Translations under genes and position numbers: made by a program | Shown here: in pieces, positions 3 through 49,498 of the stretch | How positions within the stretch are numbered: position 1 is the stretch's first letter | How the letters are laid out: every line of letters starts with the position of its first letter | The notes under the pieces: generated by a model | Told to the model about the DNA's origin: nothing | The model's input: only the letters and a program-made list of their open reading frames with translations | Database searches by the model: none | Source of the DNA: an uncultured Planctomycetia bacterium | GTDB taxonomy: Bacteria; Omnitrophota; Gorgyraeia; Taenaricolales; CAZCCH01 | Length of the DNA: 64,000 nt | Assembly (NCBI GenBank): GCA_964497315.1 | Contig: CAZCCH010000003.1 | Span: 23,346 to 87,345, forward strand | Direction: 5' to 3'

Positions 3-3000
3 ATAACTAAGAGCATCCCTCCTGCAGAAATAACGCCTGATAGAATTGCAGTGATAACTGAAAGCTTAAATCCTATGAGCAGAAGCACAAAACGTTTACG
101 CAAAGAAGCCGCAAGAACTCTTAGACAACTTCAGCCCACCCGCTTTACTGAAGAAAGATTACTTATAGGCAGAGAAGATGAACTTGACTGGCATACGGAA
201 AGTCTCGTTTCCCCTTACCATCAAGGCAGAATTTATGAAATATTAAAATATTATGATTTTGAAGATGGCAGGCATGAATCTATTCCTTTGGCATCTTTGA
301 TATTAAGAGAGGGCAGTGCATATTTTTTATCATATGAAGCAGGTCCAGGAACTAGTAATACTTTTGAGGTTACGAGAAGAGAAGGAGAAGCAGGTCCGAG
401 AGTTACTGTAGTTGAAGGATATATTACTAACTTAACAGATTTACCTTGGTTTAAAGAGATAGTTAACAGAAGAGAATGGGCGCTTCCCAATGAGGAAGTA
501 GCATATAGATTAGCATTGTTACTTACAAGCAAGACTTCTACTACACAGTTATCTATGGCTAGGCTTTATTCTTCTACGAACACTCATAGCGGTCATTATG
601 AAAATATTAACAGGCCTGAGGGTGCATCTCTTAAGATATTAACTGAAAGAATATCTAAATACCTATCTGGGCACAAGGTAGAAGATAGAAGCGTACTTGT
701 ACATAGGTTAAGATTCGAGTCACTTGGTTTATTAGATGCGAATTTAGAAGCTTTTGTTGTTGATGTTAGTCCTGTACCAGAATCTGCTGCAAGGTTTACT
801 GAATTTAGGGAATTAGTCGAAAAATGGGAAGAGAAATTAAAGACAAGAGATCATACAGGATTAGAAGCAGACCTTGCACTATTATCATCTTATGCCGATG
901 ATGATATGGCAGATAAGGCATTGCTAAAACGCGCCCACCCATTGCTTAATAGAATGGGCAAATTAAGAGAACGCGCTAAAACAAGAGCTGCCAAACTGGC
1001 TAAAGCACAAGCTATATCTGCATCTCCAGAGGGACAGATAATTACTCACCTCAAAGGAATGGCTAAGCATCATGGTAAAAAGCTGGATGCAGTTTGGTTA
1101 AATGCCAATGGAGCTTATGAGCGTTCTTTTGACCGTGGATTTAGCAGAGTAAAGGTTCCTGGTGATGTTGCACGACGTATAAAAAGAAATGGATTAAAGG
1201 CAGTTGCTATTTCAAAGCTAAGAACCTTAACAAAAGCTAAATATGCAAAAGATGTAATGTGGATTCTAAAAAACCTTAGCAGCGTTATGTCGCAGTTGCG
1301 CAAGCAACGCGAAGAAGGAGAAGGAATTAATGCTATGCGCCTCAATAATCTAGTTGTTTATGTTTCCGGATTTGATGGTGATGATGAGATTTATGGCATA
1401 GCCATTAAAACAGCACGATCTTATGCTGCAGGTGCTCGTATTCGTCTTGGGAGAATCCCTCTTTTAGATATTAAAAAGTGGAGGCCTGTTTCTGCTGCTG
1501 CAAGGTTTACTGAAGTATCGCAAACAGGAGCAATACTACCTTTACAAACAGCAGCTAATATAGTAGCAGGCGTACTAGAACAAGATAGACCAGCTAATAT
1601 ATACCTTTATACCAAACCCGGAAGAGAAATTTTGACTTTCCAAAGAAATGAAGATGGAGACATAATAGAGGTTTCTAGGGGTAGGCATGAAACAATCGAA
1701 GATCCTTCTACTGCAGTAAGTAGGCGTCTTTCAGAATTTAGAGGTGATGATTTTCTTGTTACTACAAAACCGGCATCCAAAGAGGCTGATGTTTCCAAAG
1801 TCGAAGAGACTGCAGTTTTGACTGTTTTTCCAGAATCTGTAGCTGCGCCAAAAACTTTAGACGACGCAAGGGAGTTAGTTAGTGAAACACTACAAGTTAT
1901 AGGAACAGGATATAGCGTTGGAGGTATTCTTAGTAGTTTAGAGGCATTTACAACTGACTTTGAGGTAGAAATAACAGAAAATGAAGTTAATGACTACATA
2001 GCTTCTCTTGCATCTTTTGAGGGAGATGGTTCTAGAGAAGGTTTTAATGAAATTATTGCTGACTTAAGAGCTTGCCTATTTCAACTTAGGGGATTTACTA
2101 AAAGGACTGCAATGCCTGCAAGATATTCAGAATTAACTTTTCCTGTTGAAATTAAAGGTATTTCTGCTGTGGGAGATGTTGCATTTACTTCTGATTTTGG
2201 ACATATACAAATTGTAAATGTTAAAGGACGCTTATCACTTCAGACGAACCCTGCTGTAAACGGAAGTATTTATAAATGGAGAGAAGATGATGAAGATGGC
2301 GGGTGGTATCTCACAAGCGGAACTGGAATAAAATATATAGGTGAAAGGGAAGCACTTGGTAAAAACATACGAAAAGCAATTGATAATAGAACTAAAGCCA
2401 GATATTCAGAACAGCAAAACCTACCACAAAGACTACACCAGCAAATAATGGATGTTTTGGGGCCTCAGGGTATTACACCTGCTGCTGGCTTGAGCCTAAT
2501 GAACCTGCCAATTCCGCGCTTAGAGCGTTTAGCTGACATTGTTAGCCCGAATTGGCGTGATAACCGTGATCTAGAGGTCCTCATAGCTAGACACAGATTG
2601 GATAATGGGCTTCAGGCCTATTTAGGCGATAGATTTTTTGCCCTTATACGAGACAATGAACTTATCGTCCGAGAGCAAAAATTTGATATGACAATTTCAG
2701 GTTCTGCGATGTATGACTATATAGTTGACGCTGACGAGATTGGTGTTGAAATTCCTGAATGGCTACATTATGAAGATCTTGCGATTGCAGAACCAGGACA
2801 GGTAGATAAAGAATTAGATGCATTAGATGATTTAGGGGAAGAAGGCGATAAATTGGGGCAAGCAGTACGTGACGCCAGGACACCCGGAGGCCCTGGTCAA
2901 GCAGAAGCAATTGTTGCAGCACACCTTGGAGCTAGAGTAAGAGGAGTATTTACGCTTGGACATGATGGAGAAGAATTACTGTTACGTATGAGAAGGGCAG

Positions 3001-6000
3001 GTGTTGACGTAACTAGAGTTGAACAAGATCCAAATAAGCGCACAGCCATGACCTTTGTTGTCTCAGGGGGTGGTAAGACTGCATTTGGTCATGAAATGGG
3101 CGCAGATGATAATTTGAATCTTAATAATTTAAGGCCTGAAGATTACCAGGTGCAGGTTTTCCATGTTGGAGGCCCTGCTTTAACACCAACATATATGAGG
3201 CAGCTGCCAAAGGTTTTTGCCAATGCTAAAAGAGAAGGTGCTATAACATCTATGGATATGGTAGCTGACCCATTATGGCTTTGGAAAGAACTTAAAGACA
3301 AAGGAGACGCTGCTAAAATTTGCAGAGATTTAGATGTGCTTATGCTGAGCACAAAGGAAGTAAAATATCATGCAGATTTACTAGAAGGCCAAAGTAAAGA
3401 AGAAGCAGAGCAACTTATGATAGAAGAAGCTGAAAAGATTGTAGAAGAGCTTCTTGCAATGGGCGTTAAGACAGTTGTCTATAAGCTGGGTGAGCATGGA
3501 GCTGTAGTTGGTTCAAGAGATAGCTTGATTTTTGAAGGTGCCGATCCCACAAGGACACCTATACATCAATATGCTGACCATTTTAAGATAGAGGCAACTG
3601 GTATGGGTGATGCTATGAGTGGTACTTTTGCTACTATGTTGGCAAGAACAGATAAACACGGAGAAGATGATACGCTAAATGGTGAGATGGCCTTTGGTAC
3701 TTTAGGACAACTGATGACAGTTTCCACAGCAGCTGCTTCTATTGCCGGTGAACAGGAGGGCGGCGGAGGTGACCTTGGCCACAGCCCTAAAGAAAAACTG
3801 CTTGAACGTCATATAGAATTGCAAGGCAAACCCGAATTCCGCCGTGCCATTGCCAGAATAGATGGCAAGACCACTAGAGACCAGGCAGGATCCAGGTATT
3901 CAGAGTCTCCCAGGCTCCCACTAGGAAGAGAGGATCGCGTTGTTGTACTTGGAAAAGAAATTTTTGTAGGAAGAATACCAGGAAGAGATATTGGACAGTG
4001 GTTACCTAGGGCATTAAGTGGGCCTGCTGGAAATGTTATGAGAATAATTATGAGGGAAACTCCACCAACCGCAACCGATGCAGATGGAGTTGAAATAGCC
4101 AGGAAGTTTAGTATTCACGATACAAATTGGTATTCTCCTGAGGTTACTGCAACTACAAAAGCAGATTCTACTCCAATAAACCCAATAGAGGCAGCAAAGC
4201 AAGTATTAAAGGAAGACAAGGGTTATGAGCTAAGAAAGGACAGGTTAACTCTTTATATAATAGGTCCTGCTCGCTTTGCAGAAGGCAAGCTCTTGCTTGT
4301 GGAAAATAATGATGATGTAGTAAATACAGTAAAGAGAAGTTTGGCGCGAAGAGGTGTTGAAGAAGAAGATATTATAGTAGTTAAAACCGGAGAAGATGCA
4401 CAACAACACCTACGAGGTGCAGATATTGCAGTAGCAATAGTTGATCTTACGCTTGATGGTGACATGACAGGTGAAGAAGTACTTGCTGAAGCGCTTGGCC
4501 GTAGCATTCCAAGAGTAGTATTTAGTGGGGATGTCGACATGGATCCTTCCAGGCGAAGAAGGGTAGAGGCCCTGGCGAAAGATGCTGTTTTTGCAAAACC
4601 TCGAGATTTTACAGCGGCTATAGATAAAGCCGTTGCTTTAGGTGCTGACTCACTCAAAAGAGCAAAATTCGTAACATCCCTTAGGGAGCTTGGCTATATT
4701 GATAGCGCTATGGATGTTTCTGAAAGGCCTGAGGATGAACCCTTTAGAAAAGCACTAGTGAGATTTCTGGCATCAGAAATTGGCCCAAGGATGGCCTCAA
4801 TGCCAGTATACCCTAAAAAGGTAAAGGGTGGTAGCGGTTGGTTTAGCCTTCCAGATGAGACAAAGCGATATTACGTATCATGGTCTAGGTCAGGTCAAAC
4901 CCCACAAAAAGAAGATGTTTTTAAGTTTTCAGTAGGCGCTGATCATAAATTATTCTCCAATGTACCTAAGACTGTATTTTTAGGTGGCATGACAACTATT
5001 AAGTCTACTGAGATAGAGATAGTTGAGGATGAGTCAGCCAGATTTTCAGAGGCTGATAAACTGAGACTTCACGCTGAGGATACTGCGTTTGGGTTGAATG
5101 GTCTCGATGTGCCAGAAATTCCCCTTCCAAAACTTCCAAGGCCACAAGAGGGAGGTGAAACTTGGGCTTCTATTAGTAATCCTCCTAAACACAGGATTTG
5201 GTCAACTTCTGGTAGTTTAGCGGGACGTAGCACAAGAACTGACGAAAAAGATCCCGCCAGATTTTCAGAAAAAAGCCTGAATGAAGCGCGGACGGCTGTC
5301 CGGGAAGCTTCGGAAGTCATTTCCACCGGTATGGATACTGTCTTAAAAAGAACAGGAGAAGTTGATCCTATAATATCAGTTCAGCCTGATGGTCGTATGA
5401 TATGGACTAAAAGTGGCCGGCAATTTGTAAAATCTGATGATGGGATATGGACAACCGTTATTGACAGAGATGGCACTAAGCAGCAGTTTAGGCCTAAGTC
5501 TAATGTAGGCAGGGCATTAAATCGAGTTGTTGCTAATTGGAGAGATGAGCTTAGAGGCACATCCCCGGCACCTGAGTACGGAGGTGCCCATGAACGTGAT
5601 CGCCGGGTAGCCGCTGCCAGATATACAGAAGCTAAAGCTAATGACATAGTTGAAATTACTAGTATTGAGGGCGAGCTGGATTTAATGACAGAAACTATGC
5701 AACAGATTAGAGGGCCACTTGCAAGATTATTAAAAGAAGAAGATATAGAAATTATAGTACGAAGCGACACAATTGCTTTTGTAGGCAACGCATTTTTAAA
5801 TTCTCTTTCTATAAATACCTGTCTATTTGCCTTGCGAGAATTTCATAAAGCTGTTGCAGAACGGGATTTTGCTACTGCAAGAAGAAAGCTTACTGATGCA
5901 CAAAGGAAGCTAGCAGAAGTTAAAAGAAGCCTACCCAAGAGCCCTAAAGCCCAAGAAGAAATAGTCACCCCTCTTGAAAGGGCAACTAGGAGTTTCGATG

Positions 6001-9000
6001 CTTATCTTAAAACTGCAACTTCACGTAGGCGCTTTAGAAATGCCAAACGAGCAAGATATTCAGAAGGTCCCATAGACCAAGCAGTAGAGGTATTGAGATT
6101 TAGAACCCTTCTATTTATAGGAACGGGCAAAAAAACCAAACCAGCCGGATTAGATTCCTTGATTAGTAAAACAGATGCTAAGCCACTTGTATGTTCAGCT
6201 GTCCCAGCTGAAATTATCCATGACATAGACCGAGAAACAATTCCAGGTCCGTCACCTAAACTACCTGTCTTAGTTTTTAAAGACCAGAGTACATTTGAAA
6301 GATACTATGATGCAGCAACTGAAACACATCCAGATATCATGATGATAATACTAATGCCTACGCAAGCTAGGGGAATAGATTTTGATATTGCTTATCCGCC
6401 TTCAGGAAAAAAGGCCCCTTATATTACTATTGCAAGCAAGGCTTCAGAAGCTGCCTGGGCGAATGCGATAGTGCGTCTTGCATCAACAATTGATGTGATG
6501 CGCCAAGATGGTATATTCGGTTCTCCTGATGCAACACAAGCCGAACAAGCTAGATATTCAGAAGCTACTCTATCTGATTTAGCTGATGGATACGACATGA
6601 CTGATGCTGATAGACGCTTGGTTAGTATGCTATCTTCAGAAAGCAATGAAGCAAGAGAAACAGCAATCAGTAGGTTTACTAGGGCTTTTGGCAATGTTAA
6701 GACAATAGAGGCTAATCGCAAGAATTTAGAAGGGATGCGTGTGGTACCAACTAAGGTAATAGGCTGGTTTCATTCATCAATTGATGATTTAGTTAGTTAT
6801 AGAGGATATCGCTGCCTTATGCCTTACCATCCATTACTTTTAGAAGTAGCAAAAGCAGCCCATAAATATAATGCAGAAGAAGGAACAGATTACCAGCCAT
6901 ATGCTACTGGTCCTTGGGTTTCAGCAAGTTATGCTGGCTTAAATCCAATAGCTGATGGAAGATATAAGCCATATATATATTGGTGCGATGGCTTTGGAAG
7001 ATCATTCTCTAATTTACCAGTTGAGTTAATAACTGAGATTAAAGATATAGCTAAGCGCGATGCCCTTATCGGTCCGCTAAAAACTAACATGACTGAAGCA
7101 CAAATAGAAGATGCCTTGCTTGGTAGATTATCAGCGGATCCTACATTTTTGATGGACCGTGTTAGGCTTGCATTAATTATAGGAGATGACTTAGAAGTAG
7201 CAGGTGCTAAATTATGGGCAAGTGAGCAGGTTTCTGTAAATAGGCTATTGGAAGGAACCCTTACTTTAGCTGGCGCTGCCCCTTTAAACGCCAGGGAAGA
7301 AGGACCGAAGCTATTAGTAAAAGTTATTCATAGACTAGTTGAAGGCAGAAAGAGTTTCTGTGGAGAGTTTGAAAAACCCGGACGTTCTGTTGGTGCAAAT
7401 CTAGTGGAATTTTTAAAAGGAGCAGAACCACGAGCTGATTTAGGTGGCAGGATAACAACTGTTTTAGAAAACTTTAGAATTGATAAGGACGGTTTTGAAG
7501 GCTTAAGAGAAGCTGTCCTTAAAGACCTTGCTCAATCAAATCCAACTGAGCAATATCCATTGAATGAAAGATTGAAAGAAGCTGCAGAATCAGTTCTTCT
7601 TGCAAGGCCCGAACTTGAGACTAGGGATGCACCGCCTTTCTTTGAAGGAGGGGAAGGAATAACTAATAATCCTGATGGTAGTGTTACCTTTAATAGTTCT
7701 ATACAAAATCAAAGAGGCAGAGTAGCATTTATGGTAGATTTCCCAGAGGCTAAACACTTCCAAAGAGGAAGAAGGCCTGTTGTATTTTTATTCCATGGTC
7801 TATCAGGACATAAGACAGAGCCTCATCTTCAAGAATTTGCTGAATGGTTTAGGCAAAGAGGTTTTGCAGTTGTAAGAATAGATTTTACTAATAACAAAAT
7901 AGGTGACAAACCTAATGAAAGCGGTGGAAACTTACAAGACTTTTCCATTGCAGGTGAGATGGGTGATTTTCTATCAGTAGCCGAACACCTAATAGAAACC
8001 ATGAGTGGTTGGCTTAATTTTTCTAGAACATATGTAGGTGGTCACAGCTATGGTGGTTTAGTAGCTAGAGGAGTAAGAGAATTAGCGCGTCTAAACTCTG
8101 AATCTGCGGTTGCTCGTTTAGGTATACAAGGTGTTATAGACATGTCTGGTATTGTATCTCCTGCGGGTTCTGCTAGGAAGGCTATACAAAGAGCCCTTAT
8201 ACAAAAGGTTCTTAGTGAGGGAAGAGCCCAAGACGAAGGAGAGGCAGGAAGCATTGTTTCATATGAAGATGTGCAAGAGACATACGAAACCTGGAGACGA
8301 GACCGCAACTTAGAATTATTTGCAGGTGGACAGCGCTTCTTTCTTAGAGATGATGATGGTGCAATAGATTGGGAACAATATGATGCTGTGGATGCTTTAT
8401 CAAAATTTCCTAAAGATGTTCCTTATGTATACATAATTGGAACAGAAGATGTTGGTGTTAGGTGTACAGGTCTTGAACAAGAGAACCAAGCAAGTAGGTT
8501 TATAGCTGCAGTTGAGAGCCGTCCTCTTGGAAAAGTATTGGAATTTGATATGGAACATGCGTATCCAGGAGAGTTATTGCCAGAGATAATTAGTGCAGCA
8601 GGTGAGGCATTGCGAATTCCTGAAGAGGCAAGGTATTCAGAAAGAATTGAGCCTCTTGAGGTCCTTACTGGAAAGCAGGCAATGGAGGTTATTCTTGGTC
8701 AGCTTGAGAAAACAGAAGAACTTTATATAACCTTAGGTTATGATAATCCAAACTTTAGGGTTAGAGAAGGTAGCATTGTATGCAATGGAAAAGGAGTTGA
8801 GGGATTCCCAGGGTCTGAGATCTTTAAACACTTAAGGGGAGTGCATAACTATTTTTATCAGTCTCAAATTAGACCAGGTGATAGCCCTACAAACTATCGT
8901 ACTGCATGGAGTCTTAACTCAATTGCATTGACTGCCTTAGAAAGAATAGATGCCTCTGAATTAGGAGCAGAACAAATAGAAATACTTAATATCCTAAAGG

Positions 9001-12000
9001 TAGCAGCTGTTAGCGTAGATAAGTTTTTTGGAGAGAGCTTTTCTGATCCTGCACGCTTTAGTGAACCAAAAGATGCAGAGGCTCTGGAGAAGAAAAGAGA
9101 AGGACTTAAAGCAGATGTAAAGGCAATAGCAGATGCAAGGGAAAGAGTACTAGAGGTATTAATGAAAAGCAAAACAGCGGATGGCAAACCTATGACAGAA
9201 GATATCACAGGGTTGATACCTCAATGCAAGTTAACTAAAGATTTACCCGGAGGCATAATGGCATTTCTTCTTTCTTTAGTTGGAAAAGAAAATAATGTAT
9301 TATTAGCTTACTCAGGAGGAAGTATACTATCATTAGTATATAACGAAGGAGCTTCTGATGGTGAATGGGATACTTCAACAGAATTACTTGATGAATACAA
9401 AGCTTCTACAGAAAAACCTATTCTTACAAGCACAAGAAGAGCTATATTAGCTAATCCAGATACAGAAATGTCAACAGATGATTTACTCAAAGGTGGTGCA
9501 ACTGAAGATGAGATTATAGCATGGGCAAGATATAACAGATTTAAGATGCGTCCTATAGGAGGTAATAATTACGCTGTAACAGGAAGATCACAGGAATCAG
9601 CACGCTTTACAGAAGGAACTGTTATAAAGAATGTAAGATTTTTTCCAAGCCAAGACTTGCCTACCATGCTTTTTGAGATATCAAGAGAAAATAGTTTTGA
9701 ATCTTTAGAAGTTCACTATAGCACAAAGAAGGCAGGAGGGAAATGGGGAGGTTATACTATCTTTAAGCCAACTATAGAAACAGGGGCATTCTGGAGGGTA
9801 GCCCATGTTACATTAAGCTCGCTATCAGCCAATTCTAAATGGGCATTCTTTTCCAGAGGAAAGACATTAATTTTATTAGCAGATGTCCCAGGTGATGAAG
9901 CGCAGGTAAAAGAACAGCTTGACAGTATGCTTAAGGGCGTACGACTAGGAGACCCTTATGAAATACTAGAACCATCATTAGTAGAAGAAATACCTCCTGA
10001 TAGTAAACAAGCTAGGTTTACAGAAACCACCATACCATTAAAGGAATTAATGCAAAAAGAAGATCTTGAAAGAGGCGCTTATTTTGTAACACAAGACCTG
10101 TCTCCAGAGCTAATAGGTATTGCTATAGAACTACTTCAAGAACCTAAGTTAGCAATTCTAGCAGAAGAAGGTGCTACTTTTACAGCAAAACATGAACCAG
10201 GAGTTGCGAATGATACCATAACATCTATTTCAATTGATGTACCCCTTACCAATAGACTTGTTAAGGCAGCTGCTTCTGGAATCACTCTTCATAGATTAAA
10301 GATTTCTCAACATATAGACCCTGATACAGGTATGAACCACTTAGAATTTGCAATAGCAAATCCAGCAGCAGAGACCTTTCCTGAATTTGCAGGTTTTACA
10401 GCTGTTGATGATGATGCAGCTCTTTTAGGGTTAGCAAAGGGTTTTTCTAATGTCATGAGAGCAGATAGAGATATTAGGTCTTTGCTTGCTGAAACTGTAA
10501 CAGAAGAAGAAACCGAAGATGTAATACCATTCGAGGAAAGAGCCCGTGAGGCAGGAGTTGAACTTGTTGAGCCAGAAAAATGGACTGATATTACAGAAGA
10601 GTTAAAGACTATTGCAAGGACAATTATAGAAAACGTTGGTCTAAGACTTTCCCGACCAAAACTTCTTTTAAGTTCTACAAGGTCAATGGTGGAACAACCG
10701 AGTTTGAGCGATGGTGAGGCAATTTCTAATGTAGTTATCCTTGCCTATTTTGCTAATGGAATACCGTGCGATTTTAGTGCAGAGCAACAAAAGGATACTA
10801 ACTGGATAGCATTTTCCGCAGTTGATCAGCGTTCTCCTTATGAGGTTGGTAGGGTTTTAATGCCTCAAGGTCTTTCCGGTCTTACTGCATTTACACAAGC
10901 CGCATTTGCAATAGCAGAGCATAATGCGTTTTCACCTGAGGAAGAACAGGCAAGGTTTACAGAGAGTCGACAATATGTTATGCCTGAAGGTGAAGCTAGG
11001 GCACTTACTGAAGATGTGGACACAGGAGGAGTAATAAGGAAATATGGAGATGGAATATTGACTCCTAGTGAAATAGACGAACTTGAAAAAGTAGAAAAAG
11101 CAGCAGTGTTTGATATTAAATTCCTAAGAGAGGGCAGTGCAGAAGAAATGTTAGTTTTTCATTGCTATGGCTACCTTCATAATTCCAGATTAGGGACACC
11201 AAAAGGTGGTGTGGCTATAGGAGATGAGAAGGCCGTAACTTCAGAGAAGATTAAGAAAAAGGCCTTTTTGATGACCATCAAAGATGCCCTTGCTGGTTTC
11301 TTCCATGCGGGATATCCATTTGGCCTAGGCGGGGCTAAATTTGGTATAGTGATGCCTGAAGGCATTAAGATATCAGATTTAACGGATATAGAATTGGAAA
11401 GACTAGCAAGAACATGGACAAAGGCACTTTATGAAAGAAACTTAATAGGACCAGATATATATGTTCCTGCGACTGACATAGGTTTAGATGAAAAAAGAGG
11501 GCCAAAATTTATGGCCTGGGTTGCAAGTGAATACAGAAATATAGTAGACGAAGATCACCCTGAAGTAGTTACTAGCAAAACCGTAGTAGGAGATGATTTT
11601 GGGAATATTGACCCTACCGGTGGAATAGAAGGAAAGGTAGGGGCAACGAAGCATGGCGGATTGTATGTTATCGAAGAAGTATTAAAAGCAGAGAATCTTC
11701 AAAGATTATCAAAACGATTTCGTGCGCTCGAAGGTCTTACTCCAGGGTTAGTAGGTAAGGAGGTTGCTGTTCAAGGTGCTGGCAAGGTAGCCTTAATTGC
11801 TGAATTGCTTCAGCAGACGAGCGAGGCGACTGTAAAAGCATGGAGCGATGAAGATGGCGGGTATTATGAAGAAAAAGGTTTAAATGTGGCTGAATTGTGT
11901 AGACCAGAAGGATTTGTTGCTGCTGGAGAATTTTTAAGGACAAAACCAGGCTTTCCTTTAACTAATTCTATTACCAATGTGGCATTATTGAAACTACCTG

Positions 12001-13733
12001 TAGATATATTGGTCTTAGGGGCAACAGAAGGCCAGATTACAAAAGAAAACGCAGGCGAGGTTCAAGCAAAAATAGTCCTCTGTCTTGCCAATGATCCAAT
12101 TACTGCAGAGGCAGAAGAGATTCTAACTGAAAGAGGCATATTGGTCATACCTGATTTTGTGGCAAACATAGGAGCAGTAAGCGTTTCTTGTTTTGAGATG
12201 TTACAAAATAAAGAAGGAAGAGCATGGACTTTAAATGAGACAAGAGGAAGACTAAAACATCTTATGCTAAGGAATCTCGGTGAGGTAATGGCTATTTCTG
12301 AAGAGGAAAATATAGGCTTAACTGCTGCTGGCTACAGGTTGGTTTTAAAGAGATGGAAGGAAGGCAATAGGGCTAAAGCTCCGGTAAGCCAGATAGAGAT
12401 TGGTAAATTGCCAGACTATTCCATGGCCGCCAGATTTACAGAGGGGACCATTACAGAGCACATTGCTTTTCTACAGAGACAAGCACGCAGTAGAGACGAA
12501 AGCAAAAAAAGTGCTATTGGATTTGGAATATCATATTATAAACCTTCACCTGCAACGCAACGGGTGCTTTTAGCAGATAGTGTTAGACATAGCAGACCTG
12601 GTATGCATGATGGTAGGCTTCAGGAAGAACCCAGATATGCAGTTTGGAAAGAAGGACATGAAATTTACCTAGTAGGCGATATTACGCATGCTGAGCATCA
12701 GCCAAACGAAAGATTGGTGCAACGTTTAAAGGACGCTAATCTTAGAGGTATTTGTATTACTCGCCAAGCACTTCTTGATAAAAGCGTACAACCAGCTCTA
12801 AAATGGATGCTTGGAAATATCGCAAGGGCTTCAAAGGATTTAGACGGTCATGGTCAGCAAGTAACTATGCCAAAGAAGGAGCCAAAAGTAACAATTGAAC
12901 TTGCCCTTGTAGACAAAGAAGATTTTTATTTGTTTGTAAGTAAAGTTAAGGATTCTCATTCCACCAGATTTACAGAAACGACTAAGCTATCGACAGACAC
13001 ACCATCTATAAGTCCAACAGATGCATTCCTTGAATTAAGGAGAGATTTCCCTGATGCAACATTAGCAAAAGGACCATTTAAGATAGTACTTCCAGCAGCA
13101 ATGTTTGCTGAAAATGCAGACTCTGAAACAATAGGTAGCTCTTTAGCTGAAATAGCAGAAGTTGCTGCCGCAAGATATGCAACAGCAATTACTGTAGAGG
13201 TAGTCACTGAGGAGAATTTATTTAATCCAAGAGCCCATAGACTAGCAGAGAAAATAAACGCTAGCTTACATCAAGGAAGAGACATCTCAGGGCTTCTTAC
13301 TCAAGTAAGAAATGAAACAACCTTTACCCTTGGAAGTCAAGCACACCTTGAGAGCCTACTAAACCAACTAAGCCTAGGTCTTAATGTCCAATGGAAGGGT
13401 ATTGCATGGGATGATTTAAGAATAAATGAAACAAACACAGATAGACTAATAACAGCAGTTGATTTGATTTTTAGCTTAATAGAGCTTTATGCAGGAAAGA
13501 ATACCCGTAGCTTAGTACCAGAATTAATGGAAGGTGTTAGGCAAAGGTTAGCTGCCTTAGATATAACAGGCTATGATGATGATTCAATATTAAGCCTTGT
13601 ATCAGATGACTTGGAAGCAGCTATAAATGCAGCAAGAAAACTACGTAAACTCCTACCTTCTGCTGAAAAAGCTAGCTTTGGCAGATACTTCATGAGGCTA
13701 CAACAGTCTCTAGAATTCAGAAGGCAGATTTAA
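3..13733 (+). CDS. Giant multidomain protein, 5'-partial. The ORF is open to window position 3 with no in-frame stop upstream. It is at least 4577 aa with the first in-window start candidate a GTG at 51. It is punctuated by about 20 copies of [AST]-R-[FY]-[ST]-E.
   Basis: The reading frame is uninterrupted from the window edge to the TAA at 13731-13733, which is impossible by chance at this AT content. Codon usage is protein-like. Embedded kinase, receiver, hydrolase and dehydrogenase signatures are listed as separate features. A C/G-rich hairpin terminator follows. Confidence 0.8.
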   Translation: MTKSIPPAEITPDRIAVITESLNPMSRSTKRLRKEAARTLRQLQPTRFTEERLLIGREDELDWHTESLVSPYHQGRIYEILKYYDFEDGRHESIPLASLILREGSAYFLSYEAGPGTSNTFEVTRREGEAGPRVTVVEGYITNLTDLPWFKEIVNRREWALPNEEVAYRLALLLTSKTSTTQLSMARLYSSTNTHSGHYENINRPEGASLKILTERISKYLSGHKVEDRSVLVHRLRFESLGLLDANLEAFVVDVSPVPESAARFTEFRELVEKWEEKLKTRDHTGLEADLALLSSYADDDMADKALLKRAHPLLNRMGKLRERAKTRAAKLAKAQAISASPEGQIITHLKGMAKHHGKKLDAVWLNANGAYERSFDRGFSRVKVPGDVARRIKRNGLKAVAISKLRTLTKAKYAKDVMWILKNLSSVMSQLRKQREEGEGINAMRLNNLVVYVSGFDGDDEIYGIAIKTARSYAAGARIRLGRIPLLDIKKWRPVSAAARFTEVSQTGAILPLQTAANIVAGVLEQDRPANIYLYTKPGREILTFQRNEDGDIIEVSRGRHETIEDPSTAVSRRLSEFRGDDFLVTTKPASKEADVSKVEETAVLTVFPESVAAPKTLDDARELVSETLQVIGTGYSVGGILSSLEAFTTDFEVEITENEVNDYIASLASFEGDGSREGFNEIIADLRACLFQLRGFTKRTAMPARYSELTFPVEIKGISAVGDVAFTSDFGHIQIVNVKGRLSLQTNPAVNGSIYKWREDDEDGGWYLTSGTGIKYIGEREALGKNIRKAIDNRTKARYSEQQNLPQRLHQQIMDVLGPQGITPAAGLSLMNLPIPRLERLADIVSPNWRDNRDLEVLIARHRLDNGLQAYLGDRFFALIRDNELIVREQKFDMTISGSAMYDYIVDADEIGVEIPEWLHYEDLAIAEPGQVDKELDALDDLGEEGDKLGQAVRDARTPGGPGQAEAIVAAHLGARVRGVFTLGHDGEELLLRMRRAGVDVTRVEQDPNKRTAMTFVVSGGGKTAFGHEMGADDNLNLNNLRPEDYQVQVFHVGGPALTPTYMRQLPKVFANAKREGAITSMDMVADPLWLWKELKDKGDAAKICRDLDVLMLSTKEVKYHADLLEGQSKEEAEQLMIEEAEKIVEELLAMGVKTVVYKLGEHGAVVGSRDSLIFEGADPTRTPIHQYADHFKIEATGMGDAMSGTFATMLARTDKHGEDDTLNGEMAFGTLGQLMTVSTAAASIAGEQEGGGGDLGHSPKEKLLERHIELQGKPEFRRAIARIDGKTTRDQAGSRYSESPRLPLGREDRVVVLGKEIFVGRIPGRDIGQWLPRALSGPAGNVMRIIMRETPPTATDADGVEIARKFSIHDTNWYSPEVTATTKADSTPINPIEAAKQVLKEDKGYELRKDRLTLYIIGPARFAEGKLLLVENNDDVVNTVKRSLARRGVEEEDIIVVKTGEDAQQHLRGADIAVAIVDLTLDGDMTGEEVLAEALGRSIPRVVFSGDVDMDPSRRRRVEALAKDAVFAKPRDFTAAIDKAVALGADSLKRAKFVTSLRELGYIDSAMDVSERPEDEPFRKALVRFLASEIGPRMASMPVYPKKVKGGSGWFSLPDETKRYYVSWSRSGQTPQKEDVFKFSVGADHKLFSNVPKTVFLGGMTTIKSTEIEIVEDESARFSEADKLRLHAEDTAFGLNGLDVPEIPLPKLPRPQEGGETWASISNPPKHRIWSTSGSLAGRSTRTDEKDPARFSEKSLNEARTAVREASEVISTGMDTVLKRTGEVDPIISVQPDGRMIWTKSGRQFVKSDDGIWTTVIDRDGTKQQFRPKSNVGRALNRVVANWRDELRGTSPAPEYGGAHERDRRVAAARYTEAKANDIVEITSIEGELDLMTETMQQIRGPLARLLKEEDIEIIVRSDTIAFVGNAFLNSLSINTCLFALREFHKAVAERDFATARRKLTDAQRKLAEVKRSLPKSPKAQEEIVTPLERATRSFDAYLKTATSRRRFRNAKRARYSEGPIDQAVEVLRFRTLLFIGTGKKTKPAGLDSLISKTDAKPLVCSAVPAEIIHDIDRETIPGPSPKLPVLVFKDQSTFERYYDAATETHPDIMMIILMPTQARGIDFDIAYPPSGKKAPYITIASKASEAAWANAIVRLASTIDVMRQDGIFGSPDATQAEQARYSEATLSDLADGYDMTDADRRLVSMLSSESNEARETAISRFTRAFGNVKTIEANRKNLEGMRVVPTKVIGWFHSSIDDLVSYRGYRCLMPYHPLLLEVAKAAHKYNAEEGTDYQPYATGPWVSASYAGLNPIADGRYKPYIYWCDGFGRSFSNLPVELITEIKDIAKRDALIGPLKTNMTEAQIEDALLGRLSADPTFLMDRVRLALIIGDDLEVAGAKLWASEQVSVNRLLEGTLTLAGAAPLNAREEGPKLLVKVIHRLVEGRKSFCGEFEKPGRSVGANLVEFLKGAEPRADLGGRITTVLENFRIDKDGFEGLREAVLKDLAQSNPTEQYPLNERLKEAAESVLLARPELETRDAPPFFEGGEGITNNPDGSVTFNSSIQNQRGRVAFMVDFPEAKHFQRGRRPVVFLFHGLSGHKTEPHLQEFAEWFRQRGFAVVRIDFTNNKIGDKPNESGGNLQDFSIAGEMGDFLSVAEHLIETMSGWLNFSRTYVGGHSYGGLVARGVRELARLNSESAVARLGIQGVIDMSGIVSPAGSARKAIQRALIQKVLSEGRAQDEGEAGSIVSYEDVQETYETWRRDRNLELFAGGQRFFLRDDDGAIDWEQYDAVDALSKFPKDVPYVYIIGTEDVGVRCTGLEQENQASRFIAAVESRPLGKVLEFDMEHAYPGELLPEIISAAGEALRIPEEARYSERIEPLEVLTGKQAMEVILGQLEKTEELYITLGYDNPNFRVREGSIVCNGKGVEGFPGSEIFKHLRGVHNYFYQSQIRPGDSPTNYRTAWSLNSIALTALERIDASELGAEQIEILNILKVAAVSVDKFFGESFSDPARFSEPKDAEALEKKREGLKADVKAIADARERVLEVLMKSKTADGKPMTEDITGLIPQCKLTKDLPGGIMAFLLSLVGKENNVLLAYSGGSILSLVYNEGASDGEWDTSTELLDEYKASTEKPILTSTRRAILANPDTEMSTDDLLKGGATEDEIIAWARYNRFKMRPIGGNNYAVTGRSQESARFTEGTVIKNVRFFPSQDLPTMLFEISRENSFESLEVHYSTKKAGGKWGGYTIFKPTIETGAFWRVAHVTLSSLSANSKWAFFSRGKTLILLADVPGDEAQVKEQLDSMLKGVRLGDPYEILEPSLVEEIPPDSKQARFTETTIPLKELMQKEDLERGAYFVTQDLSPELIGIAIELLQEPKLAILAEEGATFTAKHEPGVANDTITSISIDVPLTNRLVKAAASGITLHRLKISQHIDPDTGMNHLEFAIANPAAETFPEFAGFTAVDDDAALLGLAKGFSNVMRADRDIRSLLAETVTEEETEDVIPFEERAREAGVELVEPEKWTDITEELKTIARTIIENVGLRLSRPKLLLSSTRSMVEQPSLSDGEAISNVVILAYFANGIPCDFSAEQQKDTNWIAFSAVDQRSPYEVGRVLMPQGLSGLTAFTQAAFAIAEHNAFSPEEEQARFTESRQYVMPEGEARALTEDVDTGGVIRKYGDGILTPSEIDELEKVEKAAVFDIKFLREGSAEEMLVFHCYGYLHNSRLGTPKGGVAIGDEKAVTSEKIKKKAFLMTIKDALAGFFHAGYPFGLGGAKFGIVMPEGIKISDLTDIELERLARTWTKALYERNLIGPDIYVPATDIGLDEKRGPKFMAWVASEYRNIVDEDHPEVVTSKTVVGDDFGNIDPTGGIEGKVGATKHGGLYVIEEVLKAENLQRLSKRFRALEGLTPGLVGKEVAVQGAGKVALIAELLQQTSEATVKAWSDEDGGYYEEKGLNVAELCRPEGFVAAGEFLRTKPGFPLTNSITNVALLKLPVDILVLGATEGQITKENAGEVQAKIVLCLANDPITAEAEEILTERGILVIPDFVANIGAVSVSCFEMLQNKEGRAWTLNETRGRLKHLMLRNLGEVMAISEEENIGLTAAGYRLVLKRWKEGNRAKAPVSQIEIGKLPDYSMAARFTEGTITEHIAFLQRQARSRDESKKSAIGFGISYYKPSPATQRVLLADSVRHSRPGMHDGRLQEEPRYAVWKEGHEIYLVGDITHAEHQPNERLVQRLKDANLRGICITRQALLDKSVQPALKWMLGNIARASKDLDGHGQQVTMPKKEPKVTIELALVDKEDFYLFVSKVKDSHSTRFTETTKLSTDTPSISPTDAFLELRRDFPDATLAKGPFKIVLPAAMFAENADSETIGSSLAEIAEVAAARYATAITVEVVTEENLFNPRAHRLAEKINASLHQGRDISGLLTQVRNETTFTLGSQAHLESLLNQLSLGLNVQWKGIAWDDLRINETNTDRLITAVDLIFSLIELYAGKNTRSLVPELMEGVRQRLAALDITGYDDDSILSLVSDDLEAAINAARKLRKLLPSAEKASFGRYFMRLQQSLEFRRQI
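2900..3700 (+). other. PfkB/ribokinase-family carbohydrate-kinase-like module inside the giant ORF
   Basis: Translation reads ...GVDVTRVEQDPNKRTAMTFVV...VVYKLGEHGAVVG...IEATGMGDAMSGTFA... The DTxGAGD-type anion-hole motif (ATGMGDAM, nt ~3598-3621) and the overall ribokinase-fold order of motifs are present. Confidence 0.55.
4246..4660 (+). other. CheY-like receiver (REC) module inside the giant ORF
   Basis: Translation reads KLLLVENNDDVV...ADIAVAIVDLTLDGDMTGEEVLAEAL...IPRVVFSGDVD...VFAKP. An acidic pair, a candidate phospho-acceptor Asp and a conserved Lys lie at REC-typical spacing. Confidence 0.5.
7770..8575 (+). other. alpha/beta-hydrolase (esterase/lipase-like) module inside the giant ORF
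   Basis: Translation reads RPVVFLFHGLSGH...YVGGHSYGGLVA (GxSxG nucleophile elbow at nt ~8040-8060)...IIGTEDVGV...FDMEHAYPGE. A Ser/Asp/His triad is present in canonical order. Confidence 0.6.
11200..12270 (+). other. Glu/Leu/Phe/Val amino-acid dehydrogenase-like module inside the giant ORF
   Basis: Translation reads GYPFGLGGAKFGI (GGxK catalytic-Lys loop, nt ~11326-11349)...YVPATDIG...PTGGIEGKVGAT...GKEVAVQGAGKVA (Rossmann GxGxxA/G)...DILVLGAT...LCLANDPIT...ILVIPDFVANIGAV. The motif order matches the GDH/LeuDH superfamily. Confidence 0.6.
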
Positions 13734-13749
13734 GGTTTAAAGTACCTTA

Positions 13750-13778
13750 CCCCCTCTCAAAAAGAGGGGGTATTTTTT
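13750..13778 (+). terminator. Rho-independent terminator after the giant ORF
   Basis: The 8-bp stem ccccctct / agaggggg has a 5-nt loop and is followed by tatttttt. Confidence 0.65.
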
Positions 13779-13935
13779 ACATAATTGCCTACAAACAAAT
13801 AAGTTATAGCAAAATACCTATTTTCTGTGTAATAATATATATATTTAAGTGTTATATATAGTAAGACTAAAAACTTATGAAAAACCTTTAGTAAAACTAG
13901 CAAAAAACAGCAAGAATCAGGGGGGGCTCAAAAAA

Positions 13936-16900
13936 ATGTTTAGGCAAAAACTTATGAATTCACATTTATTTAGAATAATATCACTAGTAATATTAATGGC
14001 CTTTACAGGTTCAATAGCATATCCAGGGCTTAGCTTTGCTGAGCCTTTTTCTTTTGAAGACACTTTAAGGCCAAAAAGTACAGCAGAAAATGAAGTAGCA
14101 AGGCAGGAGCTATTAAATGCTTTTGGTGTAGAAGAAGACGTAGAAGAAATAGCAGAAGAACCAAAGATTACACAGTTTCCGCTTTCTCCACAAGATAAAA
14201 CCCTTGGTATGGTTGCTAGATTTTCAGAGATGCAAAGGCTATGGGCTTCCCCTGATAGCGGCGAAGACGTATTCTATGATGAAAAGACAAGGGGTTTACG
14301 TGTTCACAAAAAAAGTTTAAGAGCAGGCGTTGCACGCCTAACCAGGCTTGGTGGAGTAAAACAGATACCTTTATTTTCACTTCTTGCTGATTTTATAAGA
14401 GAGCATGCAAGTGAATTTACACTAACTCCCGATGGAACAAGTTTAGAAAGGGTTACCGCAGACACTCCAGACTTTGGGTATAAACTTTATCTGCAGGCTA
14501 CCAAAGACGATGCTGCAGCAGTTTTAAGAGATTTGTTACCCTATTTATTTGAACCTAAGGGTTTTGATGAGGATATATTTTTCAGGTGTGTAGTTAATGA
14601 GGATCAACTAGCTCAAGTACCTGACGGTACGCTTATTACAATATACCCACCAGGCAATAGCATGATAGAACAAAGGTTAAATGCATTCACAATAGCCAAG
14701 GCCTTAGATGACCTTTTCCTAAACGCAAATTTAGAGATGGATCCTTCCGCAGGGCTACCCGCGCAACCATACAGAAAGGTAGTTGGAGAGAGTGGAAGAG
14801 TCCGTGCAAAATGGGATTCGATGACTGAGGAAGCTGCAGATGCCTTAGTCCAAATACGTACTGAAGCCGCTTTTTTAGACGCCAGGAACAAGTCGCCGCT
14901 TAACAATGTAGAAGTGGCTACTCCCCTGGAAGATTATTTGGCCGAATTTGGAGCTGAGCAACTGGCAACTTTCTTGCCTATATTACCATCTGAAGATGGT
15001 GAGGAGGTCGCCAGGTTTACAGAGAGTAATAAAACAGCAGAAGCAGTAGTAGAGGATGACGAGGACATTTCTGGTTTACCTTCATACACTGAAAGCGAAT
15101 GGCAGATAGCAACCGAAGCTTTGGGCAGAGAGCCAGTACTAAGCCGAGCAGAAGATGAAATAGGAATGATGATGACCATGGTGGCGCAGCATGGCTGGAC
15201 CTTGGAAGAGGCGGCACGCTATTACGCAAAGGCAGAACAAGAAGCAGCCACTCGCGAAAGCTTATCAGATACCAACGCCTTGCCAGAATGGCAGGATGAG
15301 GAAACCACGTCGACATACACTGAAGACGAATGGCGTACAGTAACCACCGAATTCATGGAAGTTCTAGGCCGAGCACCAATAGTGAGTTGGAGAGAAGATG
15401 AGATGTGGCAAGTTAAGCAATATGCGCAGGAAGGGAAAACTGGGCTAAGGGCTGCAGCGCGCAAATACGCAGAGGAAGAACTAGCATATAGGAGACGCGG
15501 CATGCAGACAGAGCGAGATGAGATGGGAGAAGTCGCCAGGTTTACAGAGGCGGTGGCGATAGATGCAAATGGTGCCCACCCTCTCATCGCTATAGCTAAA
15601 CACGCCAAAAGCAATGGAGACTTTTTTGCTGCACGGGATGGAGACTTTTTTACTGGACAGGGAAGAATAATGAAAGTTACAAATAGTACTAGCACAGCCA
15701 CGCGATTTTGGCTTGCAAGGGCAAAAGGTGTTAAATATGGCGTTAAGATAAATGCAACCATGGAAGGATATCAGGCGCATACGAGATGGTATTTCGATCA
15801 TGATGATACTCTTTATGTGCGAATGGGGCCCCGCGATTACGGAGAGTCTGTAGGAGATCGGAGGCGCATAGCAGCAGCCAGGAAAATTTGCGAAGCAGCA
15901 GCAGCTGCAGAGGTCAGTCAGGCACGCTACGCGGAAGCATCTGAAGTTCCGCCAGCTGAGCCTGTTATGACAGTTATGAAAGAAGCTGGCCTTGGTACAA
16001 GAGTAGTTAGGATACCTGATGAGTTTGTACCTTTAGCCACAGACAAAACTCCTGTGAGAGTACTAAAAGAAGCTGGTTTTGCTACGAGATTGGTAAGTAA
16101 AACACCTGCAAAGCCTACTGATGTAGAAGATGCCGATGCAACCCGCTTCTCTGAAGCTACAACCTTACCACAAGTTAATAGGATTACAGCCAGTAGAATT
16201 ACCCAAGCCACAACTGGTCTAACAGTAGATGAGCTAGTAGGAATAATCAACTCTGGAGTTGGTTTACAAGCAGCAATTGAAGACATAGCAAACATGAGTG
16301 AGTTTGACATAGACTTAGCCTTGCCAGAAGTAAGAAAACAAGTAAATGATGCTGCATGGGGTAACTTAATAGATACTATTGAGAACCAAGCACAAACCGA
16401 CCTCACACAATTAAAACCTCGAATAGCACGCAGCCCATGGGGTAGTAATTATACACGGCTTTCAGAAGCTGCAAGCAAAGTGCAAGGAGGTAATTTCTTT
16501 AGCGTTGTACTTAAATCAAGCCTTGGCAGCATACTTGATGACAGGGCCATATTAAGAGAAAGGGCCGCTGAATATGACATTACGCTACAAGATATTACTG
16601 TTGCAACAATAGATAACCTTGAAGCTGCTGTCCAGCAAATGGCTTCTGAATTAAACCAAAAAGGTACCCAAAGAGCATGCTTTTTCTTAGGTGCAATACC
16701 TAAAGAATTACAAGATAGAGTTACAAAGTTAGCAGAACAACTAAGAGAGCAAAACCCAAATATAATAAACTTAAACATTATATTTGCACCAACACCTTTA
16801 GAAAATCCAATAACCGCCCAACCTGATGTAGTATCTTACATGCAGGCATTTACAGAAGGTTTCTCAAGCAATCAGCTAGTTACACTCTTAACTAGAGGAT

Positions 16901-16983
16901 TGCGCTTGCCTAGTGGCTTATTGGGTGAATTAGGTCAGGTCATGAGACAATTAGACCTTGCTGAAATACTAAGAAACATCTAA
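13936..16983 (+). CDS. Secreted repeat protein (about 1015 aa from the ATG at 13936). It has a signal peptide, 6 copies of the same [AST]-R-[FY]-[STA]-E motif and internal tandem repeats.
   Basis: The track ORF runs 13849..16983. I moved the start to MFRQKLMNSHLFRIISLVILMAFTGSIAYPGLSFA, which gives a typical N-region, H-region and AxA signal peptide. A purine-rich stretch, aggggggg, lies upstream. The motif copies and composition match the giant ORF, and the gene has its own hairpin terminator. Confidence 0.7.
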   Translation: MFRQKLMNSHLFRIISLVILMAFTGSIAYPGLSFAEPFSFEDTLRPKSTAENEVARQELLNAFGVEEDVEEIAEEPKITQFPLSPQDKTLGMVARFSEMQRLWASPDSGEDVFYDEKTRGLRVHKKSLRAGVARLTRLGGVKQIPLFSLLADFIREHASEFTLTPDGTSLERVTADTPDFGYKLYLQATKDDAAAVLRDLLPYLFEPKGFDEDIFFRCVVNEDQLAQVPDGTLITIYPPGNSMIEQRLNAFTIAKALDDLFLNANLEMDPSAGLPAQPYRKVVGESGRVRAKWDSMTEEAADALVQIRTEAAFLDARNKSPLNNVEVATPLEDYLAEFGAEQLATFLPILPSEDGEEVARFTESNKTAEAVVEDDEDISGLPSYTESEWQIATEALGREPVLSRAEDEIGMMMTMVAQHGWTLEEAARYYAKAEQEAATRESLSDTNALPEWQDEETTSTYTEDEWRTVTTEFMEVLGRAPIVSWREDEMWQVKQYAQEGKTGLRAAARKYAEEELAYRRRGMQTERDEMGEVARFTEAVAIDANGAHPLIAIAKHAKSNGDFFAARDGDFFTGQGRIMKVTNSTSTATRFWLARAKGVKYGVKINATMEGYQAHTRWYFDHDDTLYVRMGPRDYGESVGDRRRIAAARKICEAAAAAEVSQARYAEASEVPPAEPVMTVMKEAGLGTRVVRIPDEFVPLATDKTPVRVLKEAGFATRLVSKTPAKPTDVEDADATRFSEATTLPQVNRITASRITQATTGLTVDELVGIINSGVGLQAAIEDIANMSEFDIDLALPEVRKQVNDAAWGNLIDTIENQAQTDLTQLKPRIARSPWGSNYTRLSEAASKVQGGNFFSVVLKSSLGSILDDRAILRERAAEYDITLQDITVATIDNLEAAVQQMASELNQKGTQRACFFLGAIPKELQDRVTKLAEQLREQNPNIINLNIIFAPTPLENPITAQPDVVSYMQAFTEGFSSNQLVTLLTRGLRLPSGLLGELGQVMRQLDLAEILRNI
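15085..15546 (+). repeat. Tandem in-frame duplication, 2 x 231 nt (77 aa), inside the secreted partner gene
   Basis: Unit 1 is YTESEWQIATEALGREPVLS..AEDE...AARYYAKAEQEAA. Unit 2 is YTEDEWRTVTTEFMEVLGRAPIVSWREDE...AARKYAEEELA. The units start at 15085 and 15316. A second shorter 87-nt x 2 repeat (KEAG[LF][GA]TR[VL]V...) starts at 15979 and 16066. Confidence 0.6.
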
Positions 16984-17013
16984 TAAATAGGTACAACCAT
17001 TTATTGATTACTT

Positions 17014-17046
17014 ACCCTCTCCCCAAAAGGGAGGGGGTTTTTTTAC
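17014..17046 (+). terminator. Rho-independent terminator after the secreted partner gene
   Basis: The 10-bp stem accctctccc / gggagggggt has a caaaa loop and a T8 run. The hairpin sequence closely resembles the one at 13750. Confidence 0.65.
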
Positions 17047-17075
17047 TTGCATTCCACCCCTCTTTTAACTATAAT
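17047..17075 (+). promoter_or_regulatory. sigma70-like promoter (TTGCAT-17-TATAAT)
   Basis: ttgcat lies at 17047-17052, the spacer is 17 nt, and tataat lies at 17070-17075. This is about 45 nt upstream of a strong RBS (aggagg) and the ATG at 17121. Confidence 0.5.
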
Positions 17076-17120
17076 AATAACTTATATAGAAGAATTTGTA
17101 TGAAATCAGGAGGTGAGTAA

Positions 17121-17339
17121 ATGGGTAAGCTTTTAAGTATTATAGGTGGCACAGTTGCAGTAGTATTAGGTATTGTAGCCTTGATGTCCTGGTGGTGGTC
17201 ATTTGTTGAGCTTTTAAAAGGCGTGATTCCGTGTCTTCTCATAATGGGTGGTCTTATTGCGCTATTTGCGGGTGTAAGCGAGATAAAAGATGCACTGACA
17301 TGCAAAAAGGAAGAGAAAAAAGAAGAACCAGCAGCATAA
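17121..17339 (+). CDS. Small two-helix membrane protein (72 aa)
   Basis: A strong SD sequence (aggaggtgag) precedes it. Two hydrophobic helices and a Lys/Glu-rich tail are predicted. A hairpin plus T7 run follows. Confidence 0.5.
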   Translation: MGKLLSIIGGTVAVVLGIVALMSWWWSFVELLKGVIPCLLIMGGLIALFAGVSEIKDALTCKKEEKKEEPAA

Positions 17340-17359: not shown

Positions 17360-17397
17360 AGACCTTTATCACGCAGCAGTGGTAAAGGTCTTTTTTT
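17360..17397 (+). terminator. Hairpin plus T-tract downstream of the small membrane protein gene
   Basis: The 9-bp stem agaccttta / taaaggtct has a 14-nt loop and is followed by ttttttt. Confidence 0.45.
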
Positions 17398-17407
17398 AAA
17401 AACTGTT

Positions 17408-26812: not shown

Positions 26813-26862
26813 TATGGTGGATAGAAAAAATTTAACTAACAATATGTTGCATGGAGGCACAA

Positions 26863-33781: not shown

Positions 33782-33782
33782 T

Positions 33783-49485: not shown

Positions 49486-49498
49486 CAAAGGAGTGAAA

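Follow-up and report, generated by a model that had tools for sequence, protein, structure and literature searches.

The modular gene and its giant neighbor

We analyzed a 64-kb stretch of contig CAZCCH010000003.1 (assembly GCA_964497315.1, positions 23,346 to 87,345; here called the window) from an uncultured Omnitrophota bacterium. The window opens within a giant gene. Downstream of it, on the same strand, an open reading frame (ORF) is present that begins with GTG 13849 or ATG 13936, ends at 16983, and encodes, from the ATG, a protein of 1,015 amino acids (aa) (Table 1). The 1,015-aa protein consists of a leader followed by five unrelated modules, each introduced by a short separator of the form [AST]-R-[FY]-[STA]-E.

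Table 1. Coordinates of the giant gene, the modular gene, and their flanking signals within the window.
Feature	Position	Strand	Remark
Giant gene, in-window part (4,576 aa)	3..13733	+	Modules include PfkB kinase, REC, alpha/beta hydrolase, and GDH
Intrinsic terminator of the giant gene	13748..13779	+	10-bp stem of a C/T-run and a G/A-run, AAAAA loop, T6 tail
AT-rich promoter / 5' leader	13820..13896	+	Similar to the P0005 upstream region
G-run Shine-Dalgarno (7 G)	13920..13926	+	9 nt before ATG 13936
Coding sequence of the 1,015-aa modular protein	13936..16983	+	Gene callers: GTG 13849, giving 1,044 aa
Predicted Sec-type signal peptide, aa 1-35	13936..14040	+	Predicted cleavage SFA↓EP; from sequence and conservation
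Leader/pro-region, aa 36-93, up to separator 1	14041..14214	+	Conserved F-S-x-E-D-T-L-R-P-K at 14047-14076
Separator 1, ARFSE	14215..14229	+
Module 1, aa 99-358	14230..15009	+	Residues 146-271 homologous to P0006 1768-1909; sub-threshold RamC_N-like match
Separator 2, ARFTE	15010..15024	+
Module 2, aa 364-533	15025..15534	+	Old tandem duplication of an approximately 77-aa YTE[SD]EW unit (15085-15315, 15316-15546)
Separator 3, ARFTE	15535..15549	+
Module 3, aa 539-662	15550..15921	+	24-nt tandem duplication 15614-15661
Separator 4, ARYAE	15922..15936	+
Module 4, aa 668-735	15937..16140	+	Short repeat V[ML]KEAGxxTR[VL]V at 15968-16010 and 16055-16097
Separator 5, TRFSE	16141..16155	+
Module 5, aa 741-1015	16156..16980	+	Residues 819-1010 homologous to the P0004 C-terminal module
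Intrinsic terminator of the 1,015-aa gene	17014..17045	+	Same style as 13748

ATG 13936 is most likely a better start than GTG 13849, since a run of seven G lies 9 nt upstream of it and the leader of P0005, the only leader homologue, aligns residue 7 to residue 7 counting from its own Met1 (P0005 and two further distant relatives, P0004 and P0006, are described below). The signal peptide proposed in the initial annotation depended on this start, which is backed by the same two observations. The N-terminus comprises a charged n-region (MFRQKLMNSHLFR), then IISLVILMAFTGSI, and a c-region (AYPGLSFA↓EP), and its h-region (residues 14-27) is the sole strongly hydrophobic stretch in the protein. In addition, an end of the form G-P-x-[LF]-x-[FL]-A together with [ED]-T-L-R-P recurs in P0005 and P0004. 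By inspection and conservation, the N-terminus has the features of a type I signal peptide, in line with the earlier claim, and export of the protein is predicted.

The product of the giant gene has been called as 4,774 aa (ENA contig) or 5,272 aa (JGI Ga0118720_1000239, with N-terminal HEAT repeats), and by these two gene calls, 197 or 695 residues of its N-terminal part precede the window. The source samples are ENA SAMN10231903 and SAMN11854493 and JGI 3300009374. Because the giant N-terminus lies outside the window, the lack of a signal peptide in the in-window part, which had been contrasted with the exported neighbor, is uninformative. This N-terminus was not reached by exact-DNA and protein scans of metagenome contigs or by a protein search with the first 800 in-window residues. 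Among giant-sized relatives, P0004 has the same leader as the 1,015-aa protein and P0006 has a signal-peptide-like N-terminus.

Within the window, the giant contains 19 [RH][FY][STA]E separators and is made up of about 20 modules, complete enzymes among them. The R of separators 1-10 is encoded at nt 141, 792, 1503, 2121, 2400, 3894, 4272, 5040, 5259, and 5619, and that of separators 11-19 at nt 6054, 6552, 8631, 9054, 9603, 10014, 10953, 12432, and 12966. Several Pfam domains tile the giant (PfkB, REC, alpha/beta hydrolase, GDH, and HEAT); the five modules of the 1,015-aa protein have no above-threshold Pfam match. The GC content of both genes was 0.41-0.44, compared with 0.37, and GC at third codon positions was not raised. 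Both proteins are rich in Ala, Glu, and Arg and poor in Lys, Ile, and Cys relative to 14,541 residues of neighboring proteins. Therefore, the shift is in amino acid content and gives no sign of foreign DNA.

No recognizable enzymatic domain had been noted in the 1,015-aa protein, and searches of Pfam, NCBIfam, and PDB likewise gave no match above threshold. Module 1 matched RamC_N (PF25816) with 21 bits and an E-value of 2.5e-4, below the gathering threshold of 27 bits, especially at aa 169-250. Also below threshold, RamC_N was the only family matched by both module 1 and its P0006 homologue. In class III lanthipeptide synthetases, RamC_N is the lyase domain for phospho-Ser/Thr, so a true match would be notable in view of the Ser/Thr in the separators. 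The AlphaFold2 model of the whole protein had a mean predicted local distance difference test (pLDDT) score of 38 and was unusable. Module 5, modeled from a two-sequence alignment, gave a low-confidence generic alpha/beta fold (pLDDT 54), for which Foldseek found nothing in the PDB at E-values up to 0.001 (template modeling score about 0.3).

Two internal tandem duplications had been claimed in the gene, neither of which was picked up by Tandem Repeats Finder. The copies at 15085/15316 do form a duplication, although an old one (46% identity over 56 aa, E-value 8e-9), and the one at 15979/16066 comes down to a core of just 43 nt or 12 aa. The DNA of separators 2 and 3 (15004-15024 and 15529-15549; G-E-V-A-R-F-T-E) is identical at 20 of 21 nt, suggesting that the separator was part of a local duplication or gene conversion; the other separators differ in codons.

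The separator motif and its family

A logo built from 41 sites in four proteins gave [AP]-[AST]-[RH]-[FY]-[STA]-E, and only these six positions (-2 to +3) carried information. Strict copies (R[FY][ST]E) were found 18 times in the in-window frame of the giant, four times in the 1,015-aa protein, and twice across all other frames of the 64 kb, and shuffling gave expectations of 0.22 for the giant and 0.05 for the 1,015-aa protein. Thus, the motif and the composition are common to both genes, as the initial annotation had stated. Its count of six motif copies in the 1,015-aa protein also holds, as four strict copies, RYAE, and RLSE, but the RLSE at residue 841 (16456-16467) is probably not a separator, judging from its position inside the region of module 5 that can be aligned with P0004. 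A copy of R[FY][ST]E at 39996 (ICRFTED, in an unrelated 532-aa ORF) was judged to be a chance match.

The codons for Arg, Ser, and Thr vary freely among the motif copies (AGA/AGG/CGC; TCA/AGT/ACT/ACA), and therefore the signal lies in the peptide, not in the DNA, with selection acting on the peptide. For the same reason, an origin as a DNA-level repeat or recombination site was dropped. More generally, it is extremely improbable that the motif merely reflects composition or a repeat in the DNA (for example, a recombination or cassette site) and lacks any function at the protein level. The near identity of the copies at 15004 and 15529 is what such an origin would favor; against it, copies elsewhere differ in codons, shuffled versions of the giant never held more than three strict copies (18 observed), and the motif is kept in proteins otherwise unrelated in sequence.

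None of the motif sites falls inside a Pfam domain. Over the ten residues N-terminal to the 41 sites, acidic and disorder-promoting residues are more frequent, and hydrophobic residues less frequent, than average. A motif ends 1-3 residues ahead of strand beta-1 of a REC domain in the giant and likewise in P0005. Additionally, positions 49-408 of the NCBIfam GDH model, which is 419 long, match giant residues 3714-4119, and extrapolation puts the ends of the model some 10 residues away from the motifs at 3651 and 4144. For the REC and GDH modules together, the motif lies 1-11 residues ahead of the natural N-terminus. These results indicate that the modules look like whole proteins, with the motif standing where a start would be.

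A word-indexed search of 5.8 billion clusters recovered only the 1,015-aa protein itself, and the members of its cluster were identical except for how the first residue (GTG start) is written. HMMER searches against 1.84 billion protein representatives identified three distant relatives, each with one module in common with the 1,015-aa protein. P0005 (1,331 aa) has a homologous leader (41% identity over 103 aa), P0004 (4,210 aa) a homologous C-terminal module (28% over about 200 aa; C-terminal in both proteins), and P0006 (4,004 aa) a homologue of module 1 (31% over 144 aa). No orthologue was found in any other genome, and PDB sequence searches gave nothing. The leader matched none of 185,579 species genomes, a module-1 search across species genomes recovered the P0006 contig alone, and viral contigs searched with the leader and C-terminal module alignments gave no match. 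As far as these searches indicate, the family appears to be rare and not phage-borne.

The separator recurs in these relatives. Strict copies numbered nine in P0004 (0.24 expected) and three in P0005 (0.06 expected), the latter along with HFAE variants. P0006 has no R[FY][ST]E; in its place, K[SA]SSAG occurs in seven copies (0.0015 expected), which likewise follow A, S, or T. It derives from the single-cell genome 'Candidatus Omnitrophota bacterium SAG AM-311-C11' (contig JBHPDT010000061.1) and contains an FHA domain. P0005 occurs in the same two ENA samples as the window, and its tetranucleotide correlation with the window is r = 0.89, compared with 0.68 for the P0006 contig. Its gene stands alone after carB-guaA-purF, with no giant neighbor.

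Taken together, these comparisons suggest that the 1,015-aa protein is one member of a small, lineage-specific family of exported, motif-punctuated, modular proteins. The plan of the family would be a head (promoter, signal peptide, and ETLRP leader) followed by interchangeable modules joined by a fixed separator. Modules are exchangeable while this syntax is conserved, given that each relative has just one module in common with the 1,015-aa protein.

The initial annotation had proposed a dedicated two-gene system, in which an exported partner of 1,044 codons works with a non-exported, possibly paralogous giant. Paralogy was rejected: beyond the motif, BLASTP of the 1,015-aa protein against the giant gave nothing below an E-value of about 1, hhalign of the C-terminal module profile against the last module of the giant gave a probability of 0.2%, and the two proteins have no module in common. 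Adjacency, the motif, the composition, and the terminator style do link the genes. A strong terminator and a promoter-like spacer part them, however, so a dedicated pair is unsupported. Furthermore, P0005 stands alone, P0004 (itself a giant) carries both the leader and the C-terminal module of the 1,015-aa type in one chain, and the giant N-terminus, on which non-export would have to be judged, lies outside the window. A two-gene system of this kind is thus quite improbable. The giant and the 1,015-aa protein have syntax, not content, in common, and therefore are better regarded as members of a family than as a pair; the 1,015-aa protein represents a short form of the multi-enzyme long proteins already known from Omnitrophota and is not a dedicated partner of the giant.

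The hairpins at 13748-13772 and 17014-17038 have 10-bp stems followed by T-runs (-18.5 and -18.8 kcal/mol) and are the sole pyrimidine-arm hairpins in the 64 kb on both strands. Both C-run/G-run hairpins noted previously are therefore present and of the same style; it had also been noted that they look like copies of each other. Both contain CTTACCC...AAAA...GGGGGT...TTTTTTAC, and a common origin is plausible but unprovable over about 35 nt. An element of the form CCT-TTTT...T-TAATAATA follows each terminator (13817-13837 and 17059-17079, 76% identity), 45 nt downstream of the first and 21 nt downstream of the second, and resembles the -10 region of the next unit. Duplication of the terminator block may have included the promoter block.

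The AT-rich region 13820-13896 has blocks in common with the DNA upstream of P0005 (TGTAATA, TGTTATATATA, and ACTAAAAAC). Their local alignment score was 38, compared with 21.2 +/- 3.2 for shuffled sequences, of which 1 in 1000 reached 38, and with 14-27 for other intergenic regions of the window. These signals indicate that the giant gene and the 1,015-aa gene are probably separate transcription units.

Predicted processing at the separators

Omnitrophota are known for genes of extreme length that encode many enzymes, and the field asks explicitly whether the products of these genes stay in a single chain or are cleaved. Cleavage of Omnitrophota giant proteins has been suspected, and information on cleavage points was absent (West-Roberts et al., bioRxiv 10.1101/2023.11.21.568195). 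The catalogue of Omnitrophota 'multi-enzyme metabolic clusters' applied a threshold of at least 10,000 aa (bioRxiv 10.64898/2026.06.07.730766). As in the giant described here, unrelated enzyme and regulatory domains (kinase, REC, hydrolase, and HEAT) tile one chain in these long proteins, N-terminal signal peptides are common, and the sequences are largely unique. In contrast to them, the proteins of this study have 1,015 aa and 4,774-5,272 aa, no transmembrane helices in the window, no C39, S8, or SecA domains, and a strict separator motif at every module boundary. The giant fits the 'multi-enzyme metabolic cluster' class, although it is below the 10,000-aa threshold. A literature search on the motif strings returned irrelevant matches only. 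The 2026 preprint does not contain 'motif', the 2023 preprint does not contain 'short motif', and neither contains 'linker' or 'polyprotein'; going by this wording, neither the separator motif nor its lineage-specific variants have been described before.

The separator is kept across paralogues and species while the modules are not, and a homologous module in P0006 is surrounded by another separator, which points to recognition of the motif by a lineage-specific trans-acting factor, as far as sequence comparison can tell. Among such factors, a protease is favored because the small-basic-aromatic-small-acidic pattern has the form of the S/T-X-F↓X-D/E sites, established by experiment, at which surface proteins of Mycoplasma hyopneumoniae are efficiently cut in acidic disordered regions, for example at TYFAE (PMC3322551, PMC4772806). 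In the P97/P102 adhesins of that species, the sites are built alike: P3 is small, P2 is free, P1 is Phe, and P2' is acidic (TYFAE in the adhesins, [AST]RF[ST]E in the proteins of this study). In both cases, the sites are found within acidic, disordered stretches of exported proteins. In the 41 sites of this study, P1 is Phe or Tyr and P2' is Glu without exception, and P3 is Ala in 26 and Ser or Thr in 14. The proteins here differ from the adhesins in that P2 is fixed as Arg or His, P3 is mostly Ala, the sites are far more regular, with one at every module boundary, and cleavage is predicted only. There is also no sequence homology between them, and the phyla are unrelated: Pfam and NCBIfam revealed no adhesin family, and the HMMER search gave P0004, P0005, and P0006 only.

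From this precedent, the enrichment of the motif, its peptide-level signal, its acidic and disorder-prone N-terminal flank, its position outside Pfam domains and ahead of modules that look like whole proteins, the exchange of modules under a conserved syntax, and the leader and upstream DNA in common with P0005, we predict that polyprotein precursors are processed by endoproteolysis at the motifs, with a probability of roughly 45%. The cut would most simply fall after the aromatic residue, [AST]-R-F/Y↓S/T-E. Each gene would then encode a polyprotein precursor that is exported by Sec, sheds its signal peptide and the ETLRP pro-piece, and is cut by a trans-acting protease into separate module proteins, of which the 1,015-aa protein would yield about five. 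It is possible, with more doubt attached, that the hexapeptides of the different lineages ([AST]-R-[FY]-[ST]-E and K[SA]SSAG) mark every module boundary as cleavage sites for co-evolving proteases and that complete enzymes are released outside the cytoplasm.

Several points weigh against cleavage, which is a prediction from sequence here. No protease gene was found in the 64 kb by a Pfam scan of ORFs of at least 150 aa and the 72-aa gene described below, and no peptidase family exceeded its threshold in the giant, the 1,015-aa protein, or P0004-P0006. The only peptidase traces were weak S9/S33 matches on the alpha/beta hydrolase module (E-values 0.002-0.009), and the precomputed Pfam list for the 5,272-aa giant product contained no peptidase. 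GDH, sugar kinase, and REC are cytoplasmic-type activities and would be odd behind a signal peptide, and the N-terminus of the giant lies beyond the window. The predominance of Ala at P3 (26/41) is unlike the Ser/Thr of the Mycoplasma sites. Finally, the family is tiny, with four motif-bearing proteins from probably two or three organisms.

Some of these points would fit an uncut chain equally, in which the separator serves as a docking or recognition motif on a beads-on-a-string scaffold, bound by a chaperone, an export or sorting factor, or a common partner. A strict hexapeptide in exposed linkers with no conserved flanks, its lineage-specific variant, the failure to find a protease in the window or the family proteins, and published surveys that treat Omnitrophota long proteins as single membrane-associated chains are all consistent with this alternative. 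It is nevertheless unlikely, as complete enzyme modules have the motif right at their natural N-termini, as though it took the place of a start, and the tolerance for Ser, Thr, or Ala between the aromatic residue and Glu is a protease subsite pattern with experimental precedent.

The residue after the aromatic position is Ser or Thr in 34 of the 41 sites, which raises the alternative of a modification site, where phosphorylation (R-x-S/T-like context) or another modification of this residue would regulate the modules. REC and FHA domains among family members and the sub-threshold RamC_N-like match of module 1 would agree with such a role. However, the remaining seven sites have Ala, including three consecutive HFAE in P0005, a kinase domain for the purpose was not detected, the K[SA]SSAG of P0006 provides another context, and a kinase would be left with no ATP after export. 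We consider modification very unlikely.

The predicted polyprotein arrangement also recalls MARTX-type multi-effector toxins and viral polyproteins, which are long precursors of several unrelated modules released at short sites. In contrast to these, the proteins here showed no RTX repeats, cysteine protease domain, or embedded protease, carry a Sec signal peptide in place of a type I secretion signal, and have modules that resemble housekeeping enzymes.

If cleavage at the separators is true, they would provide the first cleavage-site map for Omnitrophota long and giant proteins, which would be true bacterial polyproteins. A strict separator that can be counted, with another variant in another lineage, makes the question of cut or uncut chains directly testable, and a protease whose presence tracks each motif variant can be sought. 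In addition, the separator offers a rule for dividing such proteins into units for structure prediction and annotation.

Other genes in the window

The gene next to the 1,015-aa gene encodes a CCA-adding enzyme, for which all named best matches are from Omnitrophota, at no more than 46% identity; the organism of the window is thus Omnitrophota-like. Between the two, a 72-aa two-helix membrane protein is encoded at 17121-17339. MamI (PF26391) was listed for it in precomputed matches and was absent from the Pfam scan. The 72-aa gene has its own promoter-like element, a ribosome-binding site, and a strong terminator (17360-17398, -19.3 kcal/mol). This terminator lies within the 5' end of the CCA-adding enzyme gene as called; that gene probably starts at the in-frame ATG 17408 (MLRKISNFF...VWLVGGFLR).

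Two housekeeping genes contain LAGLIDADG insertions (26851-30459 and 49493-51043). The ribonucleotide reductase has an intein (Intein_splicing and LAGLIDADG_3), and the GTP cyclohydrolase I, of about 516 aa with a LAGLIDADG_3 match, probably contains a second one. Nearly every real-looking ORF of at least 150 aa is on the + strand, and the cumulative GC skew climbs steadily over the 64 kb, which points to strong strand bias on a single replichore. Additionally, at 32786-35955, a lysine-2,3-aminomutase-like radical SAM gene comes after a pair of adjoining D-Ala-D-Ala-ligase-like ATP-grasp genes, and these may form a small cluster for beta-lysine or peptide ligation.

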